Below, one piece after another: positions 37,517 to 43,719 of a DNA stretch of 64,000 bases. Made by a program: the position numbers and the translations under genes. Below the pieces are notes generated by a model that had not been told where the DNA came from, did no database searches, and worked only from the letters and a program-made list of their open reading frames with translations. The stretch lies in NCBI GenBank assembly GCA_011525805.1, contig WYBR01000096.1, positions 8,969 to 72,968 on the forward strand, written 5' to 3'. Origin of the DNA: Vicinamibacteraceae bacterium (GTDB lineage: Bacteria > Planctomycetota > Phycisphaerae > Phycisphaerales > UBA5793). Each line of letters begins with the position of its first letter. Position 1 is the stretch's first letter.

Positions 37517-38847
37517 GCCGATCGCCTGTGCCGTTTGAGGATGATCGCGGTGTTCTGCCCGCCGAAGCCGCTGCCGCACACGAGGACGTGTTCGAGGCGG
37601 GCGTCGCGCTGCCCGGTCGGTGCGGCATCAAGGCCATCCAGGCACTCCGCGGCGCCGAGCCGCGCCGGCAGCGACTGGTTGAGCACGCACAGCGCGCCGA
37701 CCGCCACGTCGATGGCCGACGCCGCCGCCGCGCACAGGCCGATGTTCGGCTTGGTCGTCACCAGCGGAATGCGAGCCAGTCGAGCGCCGAATACCCTGCG
37801 CAGCGCCGCCGCCTCGGCCGCGTCGTACTCGGGCGCGCCGCAGCCGAGCGGCACGATCGCATCAATCGCCTCCGCGTCGATGGACGCATCGCCCAGCGCC
37901 TGGCGGATCGCGTCCGCCAGCCCCTCGCCGCCTGAATCCGGCCGTGGCGGGCAGACGCTCAGGTCGGCCGATTGGGTGGCGCCGAAGCCGGCGATGGTGG
38001 CGTAGACGCGGGCGCCGCGTTTCGTGGCCGTGTCGAGCGATTCGATCATGAGGATCGCCGCCCCTTCACCCGGCAGCGAACCGCTCGCTTCGGCGCCGAA
38101 CGGCGCAACCACGCGCTGCGGATCCATGTCCGGCGAGGTGGCCGCGATCATGCCTGTGTGGAACTGCCGCAGCAGGCCGAGCATGTTGATCTTGCTCTCC
38201 GCCCCGCCGGAGAAGCAGACATCCGCATCGCCGCGCTCGATCACGCGGCGCGACTCGCCGATGCTCAAGGCGCCGGAGGCCTCGCCGCAGGTGATCGTGT
38301 TGCTCGGCCCCTGGCAGTCGTGGATGATCGTGACGTGGCAGGCGAGCATGTTGGGGAGGTACTTGAGCAGCCAGAGAGGCGTCAGTTCGTTCATCCCCTC
38401 GCCGCCCCAGCGCTTCATGCTGAAGGCGCTGCTCTCATCGCGCGCTTTGGCGAAGGCGGTGGTGAGTTCATTGATCTCGGCGACGATGAGGCCGGCCCCG
38501 ATCTGGCAGCCGACGCGATTGGGAGCAAAGGTCGGGGCCGCGCCGTCGCCGAGGCCCTTGGTCACCATCCGCGCATCCTCGACCGCCCGGGCCGCCCCGA
38601 TCACCGCCAGTTCCACATCGCGGCACATGACCTTCACCGCCTTGCGGTAGGTCTTGGGCACATAGTCGCGGACCGACACGGCCGGATCGACTTCGGAGGC
38701 GAAGTTGAAGGGAAAGGCGGAGGCGTCAAACTGCCGCACCGGCCCGATCGCCGACCGCCCCGCGAGCAACCCCTCCCACAGCGCCTCACCGCCGATTCCA
38801 AGGCCGGTAACGACGCCAAGACCCGTAATGGCCACTTCGCGTGACAT
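37513..38847 (-). CDS. Ketosynthase-like protein lacking the catalytic triad (chain-length-factor-like)
   Basis: KS fold (VAITGLG, PGEGAA, GFGGQN) but TCGEASG, VPLGCG and KPNIGL replace the Cys-His-His motifs. Confidence 0.85.
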   Translation of the reverse strand: MSREVAITGLGVVTGLGIGGEALWEGLLAGRSAIGPVRQFDASAFPFNFASEVDPAVSVRDYVPKTYRKAVKVMCRDVELAVIGAARAVEDARMVTKGLGDGAAPTFAPNRVGCQIGAGLIVAEINELTTAFAKARDESSAFSMKRWGGEGMNELTPLWLLKYLPNMLACHVTIIHDCQGPSNTITCGEASGALSIGESRRVIERGDADVCFSGGAESKINMLGLLRQFHTGMIAATSPDMDPQRVVAPFGAEASGSLPGEGAAILMIESLDTATKRGARVYATIAGFGATQSADLSVCPPRPDSGGEGLADAIRQALGDASIDAEAIDAIVPLGCGAPEYDAAEAAALRRVFGARLARIPLVTTKPNIGLCAAAASAIDVAVGALCVLNQSLPARLGAAECLDGLDAAPTGQRDARLEHVLVCGSGFGGQNTAIILKRHRRSA

Positions 38848-38989
38848 GGTTCAAGTCTAGCGCGGGTACGGCGAAGGCAGGGGGCGATCGTTTCCGCGAG
38901 TGCAGTCCAGGACCATGGCGCTCTCACCAGCAAGCGCATCGATCCGCAGCGCGAATCGAATGTCGATCCGCCGCGAAGCGGCGAGCGCG

Positions 38990-39247
38990 AGGCTGAAGGC
39001 CTCATCGCAAGTAGCCGGGGGTGAAGCGCCAGCGCCACCCCCGGAACGCGACGCCCACCCATCCCGATTCCCACTCCGGAGGAGTGGTCGTAGCGTCCTC
39101 TCAAGTGGAAGACGACACGCGCCGTGATCGCGCCGCTCGCCACGAAGACCGCCTTCGGGGTCCAACGAAGTCAACTATGCATCGCACCCGGGGGTGGCGA
39201 TTGAAACAATCGCCACCCCCGGCTACTCACGATCAGACCTTCGGTCT
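38990..39247. mobile_element. MITE/REPIN-like element with 34-bp imperfect terminal inverted repeats
   Basis: 38990-39023 and 39214-39247 are 28/34 complementary; GTAG/CTAC next to the hairpins; perfect 16-bp stem at 39188-39222. Confidence 0.65.
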
Positions 39248-39351
39248 GCAATCCATCATGCCGCGTCACCGCGACATGCCAGGAACTCGAACTGTGCCTT
39301 GCGGCGGCGAAGCGATTCACCACGCGAGGCGTTGAGCCGTACAATCCCCCC

Positions 39352-40044
39352 ATGACCGTCAAGGAAGTCTTCGCACAACTCGAATCGCTCGGCGACGACG
39401 CTCGCCGCAAGTACAACGGCAAGACCGGGCCTGACGGAGTGGCCGGCGCGCCGGCGGACAAGCAGTTCGGCGTCAAGACCGGCGACCTCCGCGCGCTCGC
39501 GAAGAAGATCAAGGTCAACCACGAACTCGCGCTGGAGTTGTGGAAGACCGGCCACATGGATGCGCAGATGCTGGCCATCCTCATCATGAAGCCCAAAGAA
39601 CTTTCGGCCAAACAACTCGATGCAATGGTGCGCGAGGCCCGCTTCTCGTGGGTGGCGGAGTGGCTGCAATCGTACATCATCAAGGAGCGATCCGAGGCCG
39701 AGAAGGAAACGCTGCGCGAGAAGTGGATGAAGGACAAGGATCCCTGGGCCGCCCGCGCCGGCTGGCACCTCACCGCTTCGAAGATCAACAAAGGCGCGGA
39801 CGACCTCGACGTGCCCGCCTTGCTCGACCGCATCGAAAGGGAAATGCCCAAGGCCCCGCCGGAGACGAAGTGGACGATGAACAACACCCTCGGCGCGATC
39901 GGCATCAAGCACGCGAACCACCGCAAACGCGCCATCGCCATCGGCGAGAAGATCGGCCTCTACAAGGACTGGCCGGTGTCCAAGGGCTGCACGATCCCCT
40001 ACGTGCCGACATGGGTCGAGGCGATGGTGAAGGGGAAGGGGTAA
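39352..40044 (+). CDS. DNA alkylation repair protein (AlkD-like HEAT-repeat family)
   Basis: FGVKTGDLRALAKKIKVNHELALELWKTG..DAQMLA, KWTMNNTL; family assigned from memory. Confidence 0.8.
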   Translation: MTVKEVFAQLESLGDDARRKYNGKTGPDGVAGAPADKQFGVKTGDLRALAKKIKVNHELALELWKTGHMDAQMLAILIMKPKELSAKQLDAMVREARFSWVAEWLQSYIIKERSEAEKETLREKWMKDKDPWAARAGWHLTASKINKGADDLDVPALLDRIEREMPKAPPETKWTMNNTLGAIGIKHANHRKRAIAIGEKIGLYKDWPVSKGCTIPYVPTWVEAMVKGKG

Positions 40045-40093
40045 ATTGCGGCGAGATCCTTTGGTAGCATCGCGACTCCGGGCAATGTACCAT

Positions 40094-40969
40094 CTACCCA
40101 TACAGGTCGCGAACGTGGATGAATGGGTCGCCACTCTCCGCTGCGCGCCGGACCTTTCTTGCCATGACGTCGCCAAACGGAAGTCGTCTCGCAAGCATTT
40201 CATACATGTCGAGCCCGTCCATGCAGACAACGCGCTTGCCTCGTCCGAATGCCGCAAGGCCATCCGCTGTAAACCCGCTTTGACTGACGAACAAACCTCT
40301 CGACCATGCTGCCTTGTCTGCCACCTTTCCTTCAAAGGAACGGAGGTCGGATGCTCCGATGGGCGGACCAGTCCACCGCGCCTCCAGGAGGTAGGTTTCA
40401 CCTGATAGCTCGAAGCTCCCGTCAATCTGCTCACCAACGTGCCGAAATGACGCTCGACCCGCCAAGCCGTTGGCGTCGAACAGTGCTTTCAGGAATCGCT
40501 CAAACGCATACCCGCGTGGCTGCGGGTCAAGCCGACTGACTTCAAGCAGCTGTTGCGTCAGGGCAAGCGAGCGAGATTCGTCAAAGACACTGATCGGCTC
40601 ATGTGACACAGGTCGCGTCTCCGTGCCTGGCCGCTTGCCACCGAGCCTTTCGATAAGCAAATGGAATTGATCGTGCGCGTCCGGGATGTTTTCTGGGATC
40701 TGCCTTCTGCGGCGATCGTGTTCCCGATACTCCCACAAGGCCAACAACGTACGGACGCGGAGTTGAGGGTCGCAGTTCTTCAAGAAAAACCGCAGTCGCT
40801 TTGCCTTGCTCGTTCCTTCCACCCTGTACCGAGGATGATCGATATCTATGTCGAGTTCCTCCGCAAAGAAGGCGGAGAACGTGCGGTCGGAGAAGTTGAG
40901 GACATAACCGGCGCCCATTCCGAACAAATCGTCGATAAGTACCATGTCGAGCGTTCGAATCGTTGCCAT
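40094..40969 (-). CDS. Mrr-like PD-(D/E)xK restriction endonuclease with Abi-type N-terminal domain
   Basis: N-terminal GYVLNFSDRTF..FF...SKAKRLR; C-terminal RGYAFE...EQIDG...YLLEARW...GLFVSQSGFT. Confidence 0.8.
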   Translation of the reverse strand: MATIRTLDMVLIDDLFGMGAGYVLNFSDRTFSAFFAEELDIDIDHPRYRVEGTSKAKRLRFFLKNCDPQLRVRTLLALWEYREHDRRRRQIPENIPDAHDQFHLLIERLGGKRPGTETRPVSHEPISVFDESRSLALTQQLLEVSRLDPQPRGYAFERFLKALFDANGLAGRASFRHVGEQIDGSFELSGETYLLEARWTGPPIGASDLRSFEGKVADKAAWSRGLFVSQSGFTADGLAAFGRGKRVVCMDGLDMYEMLARRLPFGDVMARKVRRAAESGDPFIHVRDLYG

Positions 40970-40971
40970 CG

Positions 40972-41568
40972 CTATCCCTTTGCGGACGTCACCTGTGGAA
41001 TGACAGCACCGACTTCGTCCGCCCGCGAGAGAAACGAGGCCCACCACTCGTCCGGTATCTTGCCCGGAGTCTGCTTCTTAAGCCGAGCAACAACCATGAG
41101 CGGGTTGACGAGTAGCACGTGTCCGATCTGTTGCGCACCATTCGCCTTTATCCTGACGAAACCGTGGTCTTCAAGGATTCGCACGCGCTCCCGCCAACTT
41201 CGCAGACCGCGCTGTCCCGAATAACCAGCGGCGTACGCGTGGTCAGTTTCGTTCTTCACCTGCACATATCCTTCGTCGTAGACGCGAGCCCATAGCTCCA
41301 CGTACACGGACGACGGATCGCCACCACCCGCAGACAAATGCTTGAGCAAGACGGTGACCCATGGCAGCAGGCGCGGAATGGTTGAGAAGCCATCGTTCTC
41401 GGTTCGTATCCACACCTCAGCGCCCGATCCTGGCCAAAGTTCGTCACGACGATCTGCGCGACGCTGATGCGCACGGCGGCGATCTCGCTTGTTGGCAGGA
41501 GCCTCGGGATCGGGGGTAACGGTGTGCTTGGTAACCGGTTTCTTCGTTCGCTTGGCCTTTGTTCGCAT
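40972..41568 (-). CDS. Putative winged-helix DNA-binding protein
   Basis: GFSTIPR, YVELWAR, AYAAGYSGQRGLRSWRERVRILEDHGFVRI has a wHTH-like pattern; basic N-terminus; 2 bp from the nuclease start. Confidence 0.65.
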   Translation of the reverse strand: MRTKAKRTKKPVTKHTVTPDPEAPANKRDRRRAHQRRADRRDELWPGSGAEVWIRTENDGFSTIPRLLPWVTVLLKHLSAGGGDPSSVYVELWARVYDEGYVQVKNETDHAYAAGYSGQRGLRSWRERVRILEDHGFVRIKANGAQQIGHVLLVNPLMVVARLKKQTPGKIPDEWWASFLSRADEVGAVIPQVTSAKG

Positions 41569-41918
41569 CAGAATGTCCAATCGAAGACTTCGGAATTCCG
41601 CGTGACCTCGAGCGCCCAGGACGCTGGCGGACCATCCCAGTGGCGTGTGGGCATCCTCAGCCATACTGAGCGTCGAGGCCGACGCATCACGCGAGTTCTG
41701 CAGTGGCAGTGCAGCGCTCGTGCATCTTCATTTTCCCGGCACTGGACAAGGAGTCTTGTGCGCTGATGAAGATGCTCTGGTACGGCAGGGGCACATTCCA
41801 CGGTAAAGGATAGCGCCTCTCCGCGAGCCATCGCAGGATGGGCATGCGAGTGCGCGAGAAATCGCAGAGCATCGACAGACCGATCCCTGAGAATCCGGTC
41901 CCCTTTGCGCGTTTGTCG

Positions 41919-41969
41919 GTGCTCCTGTGCTCGACGTGCTCGTGCGTTCTCCGTGTGCTCCTAGTGCTC
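41919..41969. repeat. Iteron-like GTGCTC repeats with ~9-bp period
   Basis: GTGCTC at 41919, 41927, 41936, 41955 and 41964, and GTTCTC at 41946. Confidence 0.7.
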
Positions 41970-42097
41970 AGCGTGTGGGGATACGCAAGGGGGTACTGTG
42001 AATTCCCGATTCCGTTGTACGACCTAGAGTGCTGCGCGCCCCTCTGTTTGCGGACGCATGGGTCGAGGCGATGGTGAAGGGGAAGGGGTGACGGCGG

Positions 42098-42616
42098 ATG
42101 CTCTGGCGCAGGCGACGCACGCTCTACCTCGTGAAGGCCAACGACGACTTTGTGAGTGGTTGTTCCTGCAGCAGCGCTCCCATTGCATCTTCCGCGCAGA
42201 TGGATTGCCCGTGGTGCGGTTGCGGGTGGCTCTTCTCATGCCTTTATTGCCACGGGGCTTTCACATTCGCCCGCGCGGTGCTGATGAGAGAGTCGCTTGA
42301 AGAACTCGCCGCCCACGAGGTGCCTCGAACGCAGAGGGTCGTGTCGATGCAGGGCGAGATTCGTGAAGAGGTCCTCATTCCAACCGTCGAGGACTGGATC
42401 GAAAAGATGCAGCCGCTGATCGGCGCTCTTGAACTCGACAGGACGTACGTGTATTTCGACGGGCATGCGATCCCCGCGGATGCGAATGGCGTTCGGATGA
42501 AGGGCATGCGCCGATCGCATGACCTGAACTACGTTCCGCAGGTGCGGGCATTGACGGATCCCTCTGCCGAGGCGCTGCTGCACGACATCAAGTACTGGAC
42601 CGCGGAAGACGAATAG
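42098..42616 (+). CDS. Hypothetical Cys-rich (probable Zn-binding) protein
   Basis: CSC...DCPWCGCGWLFSCLYC; starts 6 nt after the duplicated stop of the alkylation-repair gene. Confidence 0.7.
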   Translation: MLWRRRRTLYLVKANDDFVSGCSCSSAPIASSAQMDCPWCGCGWLFSCLYCHGAFTFARAVLMRESLEELAAHEVPRTQRVVSMQGEIREEVLIPTVEDWIEKMQPLIGALELDRTYVYFDGHAIPADANGVRMKGMRRSHDLNYVPQVRALTDPSAEALLHDIKYWTAEDE

Positions 42617-42659
42617 CACTCGTGGGAGCAAGCGGTGGACCCGGCCGCGCGGCAATGGA

Positions 42660-42946
42660 GCGAGCTCGCTCACGCTTCGGGCTCGCTTTGGGCCGTGTTG
42701 CACGTTCGTGTTTTCTCACGCAGAGGCGCTGAGGCCGCGGAGGCGGCGATTTCATTTGTGTCCGATCTCTGCGACCTCTGCGCCTCTGCGTGAGATTGAG
42801 GTTTCTGCGCTCGACGCGCTCCCCTGCGCAGAGCCTCCGGGTCGCGGCTAACCAAAGCCGCGATCCCCTGATGCCTCGATGCCTTGATGCCTCTCCCTAT
42901 TGCCGAGTGCCTAGTGCCGAGTGCCTGCTGCCCATTGCCTGCCCCC
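42660..42946. repeat. Cluster of mixed REP-like inverted repeats and short tandem repeats
   Basis: CTCGCTCACGCTTCGGGCTCG; 29-bp inverted pair 42714-42742/42767-42795 (26/29); CGCTCCCCTG...GGTCGCGGCTAA; GATGCCT and TGCC(G/T)AG short repeats. Confidence 0.7.
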
Positions 42947-42957
42947 TACCATCCCCC

Positions 42958-43251
42958 ATGCACCCCGATGAAGACGTCTGCCTCTGCTATCACGTCACGC
43001 AGCGCAAGATTGTCGCGTATCTCAAGCGCGAGGATCCGCCGGTGGCGTCGCTCATCAGCGAGTGCCTCGGCGCGGGGACGGGCTGCGGCTGGTGCATCCC
43101 CTACCTCAAGCGCCTGCACGAAATGCACCAGGCCGGGCAGGAGCCGGACCTCGCGATCTCGCCCGAGCGGTATGCGAAGCAGCGGCTCGACTACCACAAG
43201 ACCGGCGAGCGCCCTGAAGGTGATGAGGGAGCCGAAGCCCACGTTCAGTGA
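42958..43251 (+). CDS. BFD-like [2Fe-2S]-binding protein
   Basis: VCLCYHV...AGTGCGWC. Confidence 0.85.
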   Translation: MHPDEDVCLCYHVTQRKIVAYLKREDPPVASLISECLGAGTGCGWCIPYLKRLHEMHQAGQEPDLAISPERYAKQRLDYHKTGERPEGDEGAEAHVQ

Positions 43252-43258
43252 ACGTGGG
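43238..43258. repeat. REP-like palindrome CCCACGTTCA-G-TGAACGTGGG supplying the stop codon of the BFD-like gene
   Basis: Perfect 10-bp stem; TGA at 43249-43251 is the ORF stop. Confidence 0.75.
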
Positions 43259-43287
43259 ATTCGGCGCGTGCTGCAACACGCGCGCCG

Positions 43288-43719
43288 CTACTGCTCCAGC
43301 GCCGGCGCCACGCGATGCTTCCACACGATGCGCGAGACGACCTCGACCGCCTCGCGTCGATGCGTGAGCATGATGGCCGCGAAGGCGATCCAGATGATGA
43401 GCAGGCTGAGGCGTGTGCGGCGCGAGGTGATCCATGCCGCAATGCTCAGCGGCACGGCGATGAACGCCGAGCCGGCGAGCGCGAAGCCCAGCACCTGACG
43501 GTCGTACACCCAGAGAAGTTCGAGCAGCCCGCCGCGCAGCGGCGTCGAGTCCGCGAGGGTGAGAAACAGCGTGAGCGTGATGGTGTTGAGGACGAGGACG
43601 ATCGTCGTGAGGAGGCCGGCGAAACGATGCACGGCGGCGGCGGCCAAGGCGCGCATCCGACGGATGCGGCTGCGCGATCGTCTTCGAGTTGTGGCGGCGG
43701 CGCTACCGATCGACAGCAC
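43288..43719 (-). CDS. Hypothetical membrane protein
   Basis: Three hydrophobic helices, directly after hslV; start uncertain. Confidence 0.6.
   Translation of the reverse strand: MLSIGSAAATTRRRSRSRIRRMRALAAAAVHRFAGLLTTIVLVLNTITLTLFLTLADSTPLRGGLLELLWVYDRQVLGFALAGSAFIAVPLSIAAWITSRRTRLSLLIIWIAFAAIMLTHRREAVEVVSRIVWKHRVAPALEQ

Follow-up and report, generated by a model that had tools for sequence, protein, structure and literature searches.

The 64,000-nt window analysed here (contig WYBR01000096.1, positions 8,969 to 72,968, from a Phycisphaerales-like planctomycete) carries a foreign islet of 2,047 bp at the 3′ end of an alkD-type DNA alkylation repair gene. The islet lies between two perfect copies of a 33-bp sequence, the first of which completes alkD, and a closely related strain has the same locus without it. 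Its cargo is an operon of two genes, one for a predicted winged-helix protein of 198 residues (hereafter p198) and one for a nuclease with an Mrr-type catalytic domain. The reading that we favour, with a probability of roughly 0.5, is that of an islet which is flanked by attachment (att) sites, lacks a recombinase of its own and resembles either the cis-mobilisable elements (CIMEs) of streptococci or the H47 island of Escherichia coli, and whose cargo is probably a module for defence or addiction that may be attenuated.

The islet and its empty site

The target gene (39352–40044, plus strand) encodes a 230-residue protein that matches PF08713 (DNA_alkylation, E 6.6e-20). Proteins related to it go by the name of AlkD or DNA alkylation repair protein, and those closest among the named ones come from Phycisphaerales metagenome-assembled genomes. 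The last 10 alkD codons and the T of the stop codon form a 33-nt sequence that is found at 40010–40042 (the left, attL-like copy) and, 100% identical, at 42057–42089 (the right, attR-like copy), with a start-to-start spacing of 2047. It is the only 33-nt family returned by the repeat finder, and the chance expectation for such a pair in 4.5 kb, (4500^2/2)/4^33, is about 1e-13. The left copy runs into TAA (40042–40044), the stop codon of alkD, which is supplied by the insert. The right copy runs into TGA (42089–42091), which is also the alkD stop codon in the empty sites of congeners, and the ATG of an open reading frame (ORF) at 42098–42616 follows 6 nt later. That the two copies are identical up to the T of the stop codon and no further, and that their stops differ, is what is expected if the incoming DNA brings a tail that restores the gene. 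When up to three mismatches are allowed, the 33-mer is found at these two sites only in the genome's own 4.54-Mb assembly (138 contigs, 97% complete, with the islet on a deposited contig of 75 kb), and a reversed control pattern gave 0 matches.

The duplication at alkD in the window is a sharp 33 bp. Inspection and a MAFFT alignment had hinted at degenerate alkD homology ahead of the right repeat, which was tried and rejected: its local score was 15.0, the mean of 2000 shuffles being 14.8 (p = 0.47), and 104 of 176 other islet windows scored as high. Only the anchored last 30 nt gave p = 0.02. A Xer/dif-type site, as in integrative mobile elements exploiting Xer (IMEX), was also set aside, the 33-mer being without dyad symmetry by inspection.

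The locus without the islet is documented in a strain about 97% identical to this one, sampled by the public run X17. Here a contig of 1,585 nt (depth 14) covers 39328–40009 and then 42057–42842, and so leaves out precisely 2,047 bp; at the junction 33 letters agree with either side, there are 23 and 12 differences on the two sides, and the depth over the islet bins is 0. The order in this strain is alkD, one 33-mer, TGA, 6 nt and ORF 42098, so that the site is truly empty. The islet is also lacking in two congeners, G001 and G006, in both of which alkD ends in TGA. In G001 the gene ends ...AAGGGGTGA and the conserved sequence that precedes the bfd-like gene begins 28 nt later; in G006 the tail of alkD shares 99% identity with that of the window over 118 nt, and about 130 nt of other sequence stand between it and bfd. 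An earlier note on this DNA had described the perfect repeat and its two different stops, had stated that removal of 2,047 bp would leave alkD whole and 6 nt from ORF 42098, and had proposed a search for the empty site in relatives. The repeat finder and direct reading of the sequence bear out the first point, and the X17 contig shows precisely the restored state.

The islet is horizontally acquired foreign DNA. The GC content drops from about 0.67 to 0.56–0.59 inside it, and GC at third codon positions (GC3) is 0.64 in both of its genes against 0.84–0.90 in five neighbouring genes, 0.88 in alkD and 0.75 in ORF 42098. Islet DNA is absent from 40 relatives (blastn, query 38900–43300). In a sample of 401 genomes of the phylum, this genome is the only one matched by the p198 family profile and the only one with a full-length match to the nuclease family profile; eight others match the latter in the catalytic domain only. 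The contrast in GC3, the absence in relatives and the rarity in the phylum together argue for the insertion of foreign DNA rather than for an ancestral segment that was lost elsewhere.

Two credible ORFs, both on the minus strand, lie between the repeat copies (40043–42056), and a non-coding stretch of 488 bp (41569–42056) lies upstream of the operon that they form. Neither ORF has a recombinase, transposase or methyltransferase domain in Pfam, and NCBIfam and PHROGs likewise gave no match; the five PF00589 integrase matches of the genome are on contigs C5, C41, C50, C59 and C17, the islet being on C80. This composition is as the earlier note had it (a putative winged helix-turn-helix (wHTH) gene and an Mrr-like nuclease gene, some 490 bp of non-coding DNA, and neither recombinase nor methyltransferase). 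The islet is thus unlike a self-sufficient integrative element, which has its own tyrosine or serine recombinase. Nor does it resemble a transposon or an insertion sequence (IS): none of 13 inverted-repeat pairs joins its ends, there is no transposase, and a duplication of 33 bp is too long for a transposase target-site duplication. The 488-bp stretch has no Rfam match and no sigma-70-like promoter, and its terminator predictions do not rise above those of shuffled sequences. Five copies of GTGCTC stand in 51 nt of it (41919–41969), arranged as two (T)GTGCTC-N3-GTGCTC units 28 nt apart and one more copy; GTGCTC occurs 42 times in the 64-kb window, and this is its densest cluster, which may be a candidate operator or an arm-type site for recombination.

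Public metagenomes hold this DNA repeatedly. Thirteen runs from 5 studies (bioreactor and sludge metagenomes, 2019–2025) contain 0.88–0.99 of the sampled words of 39400–42600, and the junctions were inspected in four runs, X14–X17, with smaller shares of the stretch. All the public runs available consist of contigs built at k=31 (Logan). As this k is shorter than the 33-bp repeat, the public contigs alone cannot separate an integrated islet from a free circle of 2,047 bp accompanied by an empty site; integration therefore rests on the deposited 75-kb contig, which runs through both junctions. The islet appears in X14–X16 only as short pieces of low depth, with islet and flank depths of the same order (about 2–9; these are per-contig figures and give no copy number), and one contig from these runs spans the right junction without a difference (41963–42186), a join that is ambiguous at k=31.

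The nuclease and p198

The nuclease gene (40094–40969, minus strand) encodes 291 residues, comprising a helical N-domain (1–110), a disordered linker (115–126) and a C-terminal PD-(D/E)xK domain of the Mrr_cat/FokI-like kind. The latter matches PF04471 (Mrr_cat) at residues 154–260 with E 5.1e-8 and 33.5 bits, against a gathering cut-off of 21. In an AlphaFold (AF2) model, with a mean predicted confidence (pLDDT) of 85, the C-domain is of alpha/beta type. Foldseek relates this model to MspJI (E 2.1e-4) and also to Ecl18kI, AspBHI and FokI, and VIA-align to N.BspD6I (Z 10.9, root-mean-square deviation 3.6, 157 aligned), the small subunit of R.BspD6I (Z 10.8) and FokI (Z 9.4). At the level of sequence no match was found in PDB, NCBIfam or PHROGs, and the N-domain has no Mrr_N or SRA match in Pfam. 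Identification of that domain as AbiJ_NTD5, an Atlas lead at 0.89, was not supported: two planctomycete AbiJ_NTD5 proteins aligned to the nuclease family alignment with an hhalign probability of 0.2, and there was no Pfam match.

The nuclease family is large and highly conserved, with 3,865 proteins at E <= 0.001 among 8,000 scored, the best of them 61–83% identical, about 294 residues long and from several phyla. Relatives occur in 1,403 plasmid records, and 342 cover at least 80% of the query. The three plasmid surroundings viewed comprise a RelE/Phd pair and an Abi gene on a Vibrio harveyi plasmid, AbiEii on one side and Hachiman HamA with its helicase on the other on an Aminobacter plasmid, and IS elements on an E. 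coli plasmid. The copy in the islet has one conspicuous peculiarity. In an alignment of 40 sequences the motif reads D183...E196-x-K198, with Lys in all 39 of the others and Arg198 in this copy alone, such that the catalytic triad D...E-x-K is incomplete, D183 and E196 being present. The codon (40376–40378, minus strand) is CGG, two changes from AAG, and an X16 contig (40343–40551, 0 differences) confirms it independently. Since Arg takes the position of the catalytic Lys, this copy of the nuclease may be attenuated. The rest of both islet genes is intact.

The first gene of the operon (40972–41568, minus strand) ends 2 nt before the ATG of the nuclease gene and encodes p198, which has a basic N-terminus. 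Its model (pLDDT 92) has helices at 68–78, 86–95, 107–113 and 118–134 and strands at 138–143 and 146–153, and predicts a winged-helix protein, three helices and a beta-hairpin wing, with a wHTH core at about 64–160. The top structural matches are all wHTH domains, though at background-level scores throughout: those of MarR type at E 0.01–0.1, and Fur, TFE and RPC62 at Z 8.2–8.5 over residues 62–160. No family in Pfam, NCBIfam, PHROGs or PADLOC contains it, the only hit being a sub-threshold one to DUF7599; 65 members of its family have no Pfam match, and a PDB sequence search returned only E > 0.06. The start of the gene varies in public gene calls, which give versions of 147, 198 and 230 residues (40972–41664). 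A start that gives at least 198 residues is favoured, since a helix at 25–44 is conserved in the family alignment and well predicted in the model.

An exhaustive search found 671 cluster representatives of the p198 family at E <= 0.001, the best at 50% identity, and a word-indexed search added eight relatives at 63–72%. Relatives at 33–42% identity come from plasmids (165 records) and from two P2-like phages of Burkholderia. On three small (3–5-kb) enterobacterial plasmids the p198 relative heads a tight two-gene operon (L176 1866–2920, L177 2583–3710, L178 101–1179), in which the partners are proteins of about 181 residues from two unrelated families with no match in Pfam or PADLOC. RNAI and Rop are present on two of these plasmids, which implies that they replicate in the ColE1 way and that the p198 relative is cargo there and not a replication protein. 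Elsewhere, p198 relatives stand beside Abi and type I restriction genes on plasmids of the Roseobacter group and of Labrenzia, and in phage Musica one lies near an integrase, upstream of a Schlafen-AlbA_2/HATPase_c_4 protein. In the literature the p198 family and its two-gene modules appear undescribed: a full-text search for Mrr_cat together with defense gave no such pair by title or abstract, and no search was aimed at p198, which is nameless.

Entry of the islet and rival readings

In the reading that we favour, the islet would have entered as, or from, circular DNA in which a copy of the 33-bp alkD tail was followed by a TAA stop of its own. One reciprocal crossover within the 33 bp would have placed this circle in the chromosome, duplicating the 33 bp, keeping alkD whole and shifting the native tail, TGA included, 2 kb downstream. 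Elements that integrate into the 3′ ends of genes do so by such a crossover with a circle that bears a gene-restoring attachment sequence. As the islet is without a recombinase, the crossover must have been made by an enzyme encoded elsewhere, either a helper integrase that is lost or unbinned or a function of the host. Acted upon by such a recombinase in trans, the islet would now be either a relic with intact ends, as a CIME is, or a parasitic islet that is still mobile, as H47 is.

The site itself is prone to insertion. Four congeners share the gene order KAS gene, alkD, variable stretch, bfd-like gene and hslV, and comparison of their loci shows that the alkD–bfd interval is an insertion hot spot at the level of the genus. 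In G004 (L007 675–1635, minus strand) alkD is followed by a gene for a 219-residue ankyrin-repeat protein (Pfam Ank, E 1.4e-19) and then by a second alkD tail of about 100 nt. The tail of alkD itself is about 15% different there, the second tail is 93% identical to that of the window, and after it comes the same downstream sequence as at the empty site of G001; this pattern implies that a new tail came in with the cargo and that the old one was pushed downstream. In G003 (L009 2005–3020, minus strand) alkD is deleted but for a degenerate tail, which is followed by an ankyrin gene, a second degenerate tail fragment, seen only by reading the locus, and a homologue of ORF 42098. The alkD tail is single outside the genus, and it is better conserved than the gene, at 99% between this genome (G000) and G006 over 118 nt, versus 88% for the whole gene.

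The ORF downstream of the right repeat (42098–42616, plus strand) belongs to the flank and not to the islet. It encodes a Cys-rich protein of 172 residues (CPWCGC...CLYCHG). G003 (73% amino acid identity) and the X17 strain have this ORF, G001, G004 and G006 lack it, and it has no family in Pfam, PADLOC, NCBIfam or PHROGs. Further along, at 42714–42795, lies an inverted repeat with 29-nt arms, 90% complementary and 24 nt apart; the only two Rfam matches within 38800–43400 were rejected as spurious miRNA models on this hairpin (42711–42800). Dispersed repeats (42804–42940 and 38988–39250) stand on either side of the alkD block, with 75–97% matches on many other contigs in this genome and its congeners. 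Short tandem GCCTTGATGCC-like units occur in the stretch that precedes the bfd-like gene, and at 42815–42853 X17 and other runs have very high summed depth and many loose ends.

Several results weigh against the reading of a trans-mobilised islet with a working module, and some of them concern its movement. No helper was found: there is no third site for the 33-mer in the assembly, its 29-mer core has 0 exact matches in IMG/VR, and the five integrases of the genome, used as tblastn queries against 24 related genomes, gave no match closer than 8 kb to alkD, a search that is insensitive to distant recombinases. Neither of the two islet junctions can be confirmed independently by the public k=31 contigs. 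No circular or back-joined contig was present in the four runs X14–X17, which is weak evidence given that contigs drop rare forms. The two tails in G004 differ by about 15% over about 100 nt, and that event need not share its mechanism with the islet. Finally, a set of 301 genomes from the order contains 27 with a match to the alkD tail (one, G104, flagged as unpublished), and only G000 and G004 have two matches at E <= 1e-5. The earlier note had taken the islet for a minimal satellite mobilised in trans or a reduced island and had suggested a look for the circular junction; neither the helper nor the circle that the first of these would call for came to light.

Other results concern function. 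PADLOC-DB 2.0 has no defence-system match for p198 or for ORF 42098, and none for the plasmid homologues and their partners; for the nuclease it gives mREase_IV alone, with a sub-threshold-looking E of 0.0084 and 13.5 bits. Relatives of the nuclease are found in 0 of 50,697 phage records, and K198R may mean that the enzyme is inactive. Pairing was tested in 160 loci with nuclease relatives (80 from genomes, 80 from metagenomes), 110 of which match over the full length and 50 in the catalytic domain only. A p198 neighbour is present in just one of the 110 (L151, same order, 30-nt gap), 90 of which have at least 700 nt upstream, and no other neighbour is common to the 47 full-length loci from genomes beyond close kin. 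Five of the 50 catalytic-domain-only loci have a p198 neighbour: in L079, L081 and L082 it precedes the nuclease gene and is oriented alike, and the Rhizobium nuclease concerned is a protein of 357 residues with another N-domain; in L076 and L170 it is convergent with the nuclease. From gene neighbourhoods, then, the nuclease is usually solitary and p198 is a modular partner of varied genes, in a pairing that recurs and is not a fixed system. The earlier note had envisaged a possibly undescribed two-gene anti-phage module, to be examined through PADLOC and through co-occurrence of the genes; on both counts, as with Arg198, the results do not bear it out. Judged by folds, gene order and neighbours, the operon is most likely a methylase-free (Type IV-like) restriction module or a plasmid-addiction module, in which p198 probably represses or times a toxic partner by binding the DNA upstream, the partner coming from a nuclease family that resides chiefly on plasmids and within defence islands; a defence role is plausible from the neighbours of the plasmid homologues.

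Two other origins for the islet have to be weighed. The main rival is that it was captured once, from linear DNA of another strain in which the operon stood behind an alkD with the same last 33 nt, by homologous recombination within alkD on the left and an illegitimate or short-homology junction on the right, at position -33 of the recipient's alkD (homology-facilitated illegitimate recombination), after which the variant would have spread by ordinary homologous recombination; the repeat would be a by-product and the islet would never circularise. This would account for the failure to find a recombinase, a helper or a circle, the highly conserved alkD tail would serve as the anchor, and the fact that the alkD–bfd interval differs in every congener viewed (28 nt in G001, about 130 nt in G006, ankyrin genes and tails in G004 and G003) fits a recombination hot spot that conserved flanks anchor. 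However, the tail of the donor must then match exactly the last 33 nt, and the illegitimate junction must happen to yield a repeat that ends at the stop codon. The low GC3 of the islet against that of alkD means, moreover, that the operon would itself be an insert in any donor of the group, so that the question is only moved, and no such donor arrangement was seen in the 40 relatives. We regard a capture of this kind as rather unlikely. Far less probable still is that the 2,047 bp are a free circular replicon or an excised form which shares the 33-mer with alkD and was threaded into an empty site by the assembler. The repeat does exceed k=31, so that the runs cannot tell the two forms apart, and the identical p198 protein occurs on short Logan contigs, the longest of 2,077 nt, that is 2,047 + 30; yet a contig of this length is also expected from the integrated form, because k=31 contigs break at any repeat longer than k. 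A likeness of p198 to replication initiators of the RepL/RepA_N type would suit a replicon: its Atlas features resemble clusters of which one has RepL on 37% of its members (12 of 30 hits are in the set headed by that cluster, and this is an Atlas lead only), and RepA_N-type initiators are among its weak fold matches. Against this stand the cargo status of its relatives on the two ColE1-type plasmids, the deposited contig that passes through both junctions and the similar order of islet and flank depths in X14–X16, subject to the same limit on per-contig figures. An exact alkD tail on a circle would in any case still mark the excised form of an integrating element.

As to function, it is possible, if on balance doubtful, that the operon is not directed at phages at all and is instead a plasmid-type addiction (toxin–antitoxin-like) module or its decaying remnant, with p198 neutralising or repressing the toxin and K198R having disarmed the latter once it was stranded in a chromosome. 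The tight operons headed by p198 relatives on small ColE1-type plasmids, with their mutually unrelated partners of about 181 residues, are consistent with this, as is the occurrence of the family next to nucleases of two architectures. So too is Arg198, which is unique among the 40 aligned sequences, lies two codon changes from AAG and is seen again in the X16 contig. On the other hand, the nuclease is solitary in 109 of the 110 full-length loci and so generally needs no antidote, its plasmid homologues sit among Abi and Hachiman genes, and nothing apart from codon 198 seems decayed in either gene. A bolder proposal is that the p198 family is the common first gene of a new kind of modular two-gene conflict module and, jointly, that recombinase-less islets in gene tails form a distinct class in Planctomycetota. 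The effectors exchanged behind p198 would then comprise two architectures of Mrr-type nuclease together with three or more unrelated small proteins, in modules carried on ColE1-type and other plasmids and in P2-like phages. Each islet would be a small circle bearing a host gene's last ~10 codons and a stop of its own, inserted and excised by a recombination function of the host or one as yet unseen. We consider the two halves together a long shot.

Comparison with known systems

Integration at the 3′ end of a gene has well-known precedents in prophage e14 and phage 21, which enter icd of E. coli and supply a replacement tail, leaving the old one downstream. These encode their own integrase next to att, and the tail that they replace is much longer and diverged, which makes them closer to the ankyrin insertion of G004 than to the islet described here. 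The two families in the operon can likewise be set beside known systems. Mrr/MspJI-type (Type IV/IIM) enzymes and FokI share with the islet nuclease a layout of N-domain and C-terminal PD-(D/E)xK Mrr_cat domain and do not have a partner methyltransferase; the islet nuclease differs in its helical N-domain, which is neither Mrr_N nor SRA, and in the Arg that replaces the catalytic Lys. The C proteins of restriction-modification systems are helix-turn-helix proteins of about 80 residues that come with a methyltransferase. The islet operon is similar to theirs in that a gene for a DNA-binding protein lies directly upstream of, and nearly overlaps, the nuclease gene, which points to expression of a dangerous enzyme being timed or autoregulated once a new cell has been entered. 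It is dissimilar in that p198 is a winged-helix protein of 198 residues that elsewhere has partners other than nucleases.

Islets that are flanked by repeats and have no recombinase are already known, and what is added here is a planctomycete case with a documented empty site. The CIMEs of streptococci, as defined in Guedon et al. 2017 (PMC5704250), derive from integrative and conjugative or integrative and mobilisable elements (ICEs or IMEs) whose integrases have been identified. They move by accretion when an ICE arrives, and they are often met with at gene ends that have accumulated several elements. The islet shares this last setting, and also the identity of its flanking repeats (33/33), of which the left completes alkD. 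It differs in that no integrase of this specificity is known, in its planctomycete host and in a length of only 2 kb. For the H47 island of E. coli, which has no recombinase of its own, excision and integration are ascribed in two reports to functions of the rest of the cell (PMC3191183, PMC5426353). This island is 13 kb long with long imperfect repeats, and the same reports record that its mobility was shown experimentally to be independent of RecA and of 16 site-specific recombinases (Azpiroz et al. 2011; Azpiroz and Lavina 2017) and that its attachment sites are widespread among strains (PMC3191183, PMC5426353). The islet resembles it as a small island with direct repeats, no recombinase gene and both an occupied and an empty site (X17). 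The differences are that its repeats are of 33 bp, perfect, and restore a coding tail, and that its mobility is inferred from strain polymorphism.

The islet, with its empty site documented, is a clean natural case of foreign DNA in a very small cassette that can enter and leave a chromosome without carrying a recombinase and without harm to its target gene, in a group of hosts, the Phycisphaerales-like planctomycetes from bioreactors, whose mobile elements are almost unstudied. With p198 it also draws attention to an unnamed winged-helix family whose genes come first in two-gene modules, the second gene being exchangeable, on many small plasmids of enterobacteria. If the islet is only a relic, it would be ordinary accessory DNA in a hot spot; if its insertion is catalysed in trans, the 33-mer would be a handle for finding the enzyme.

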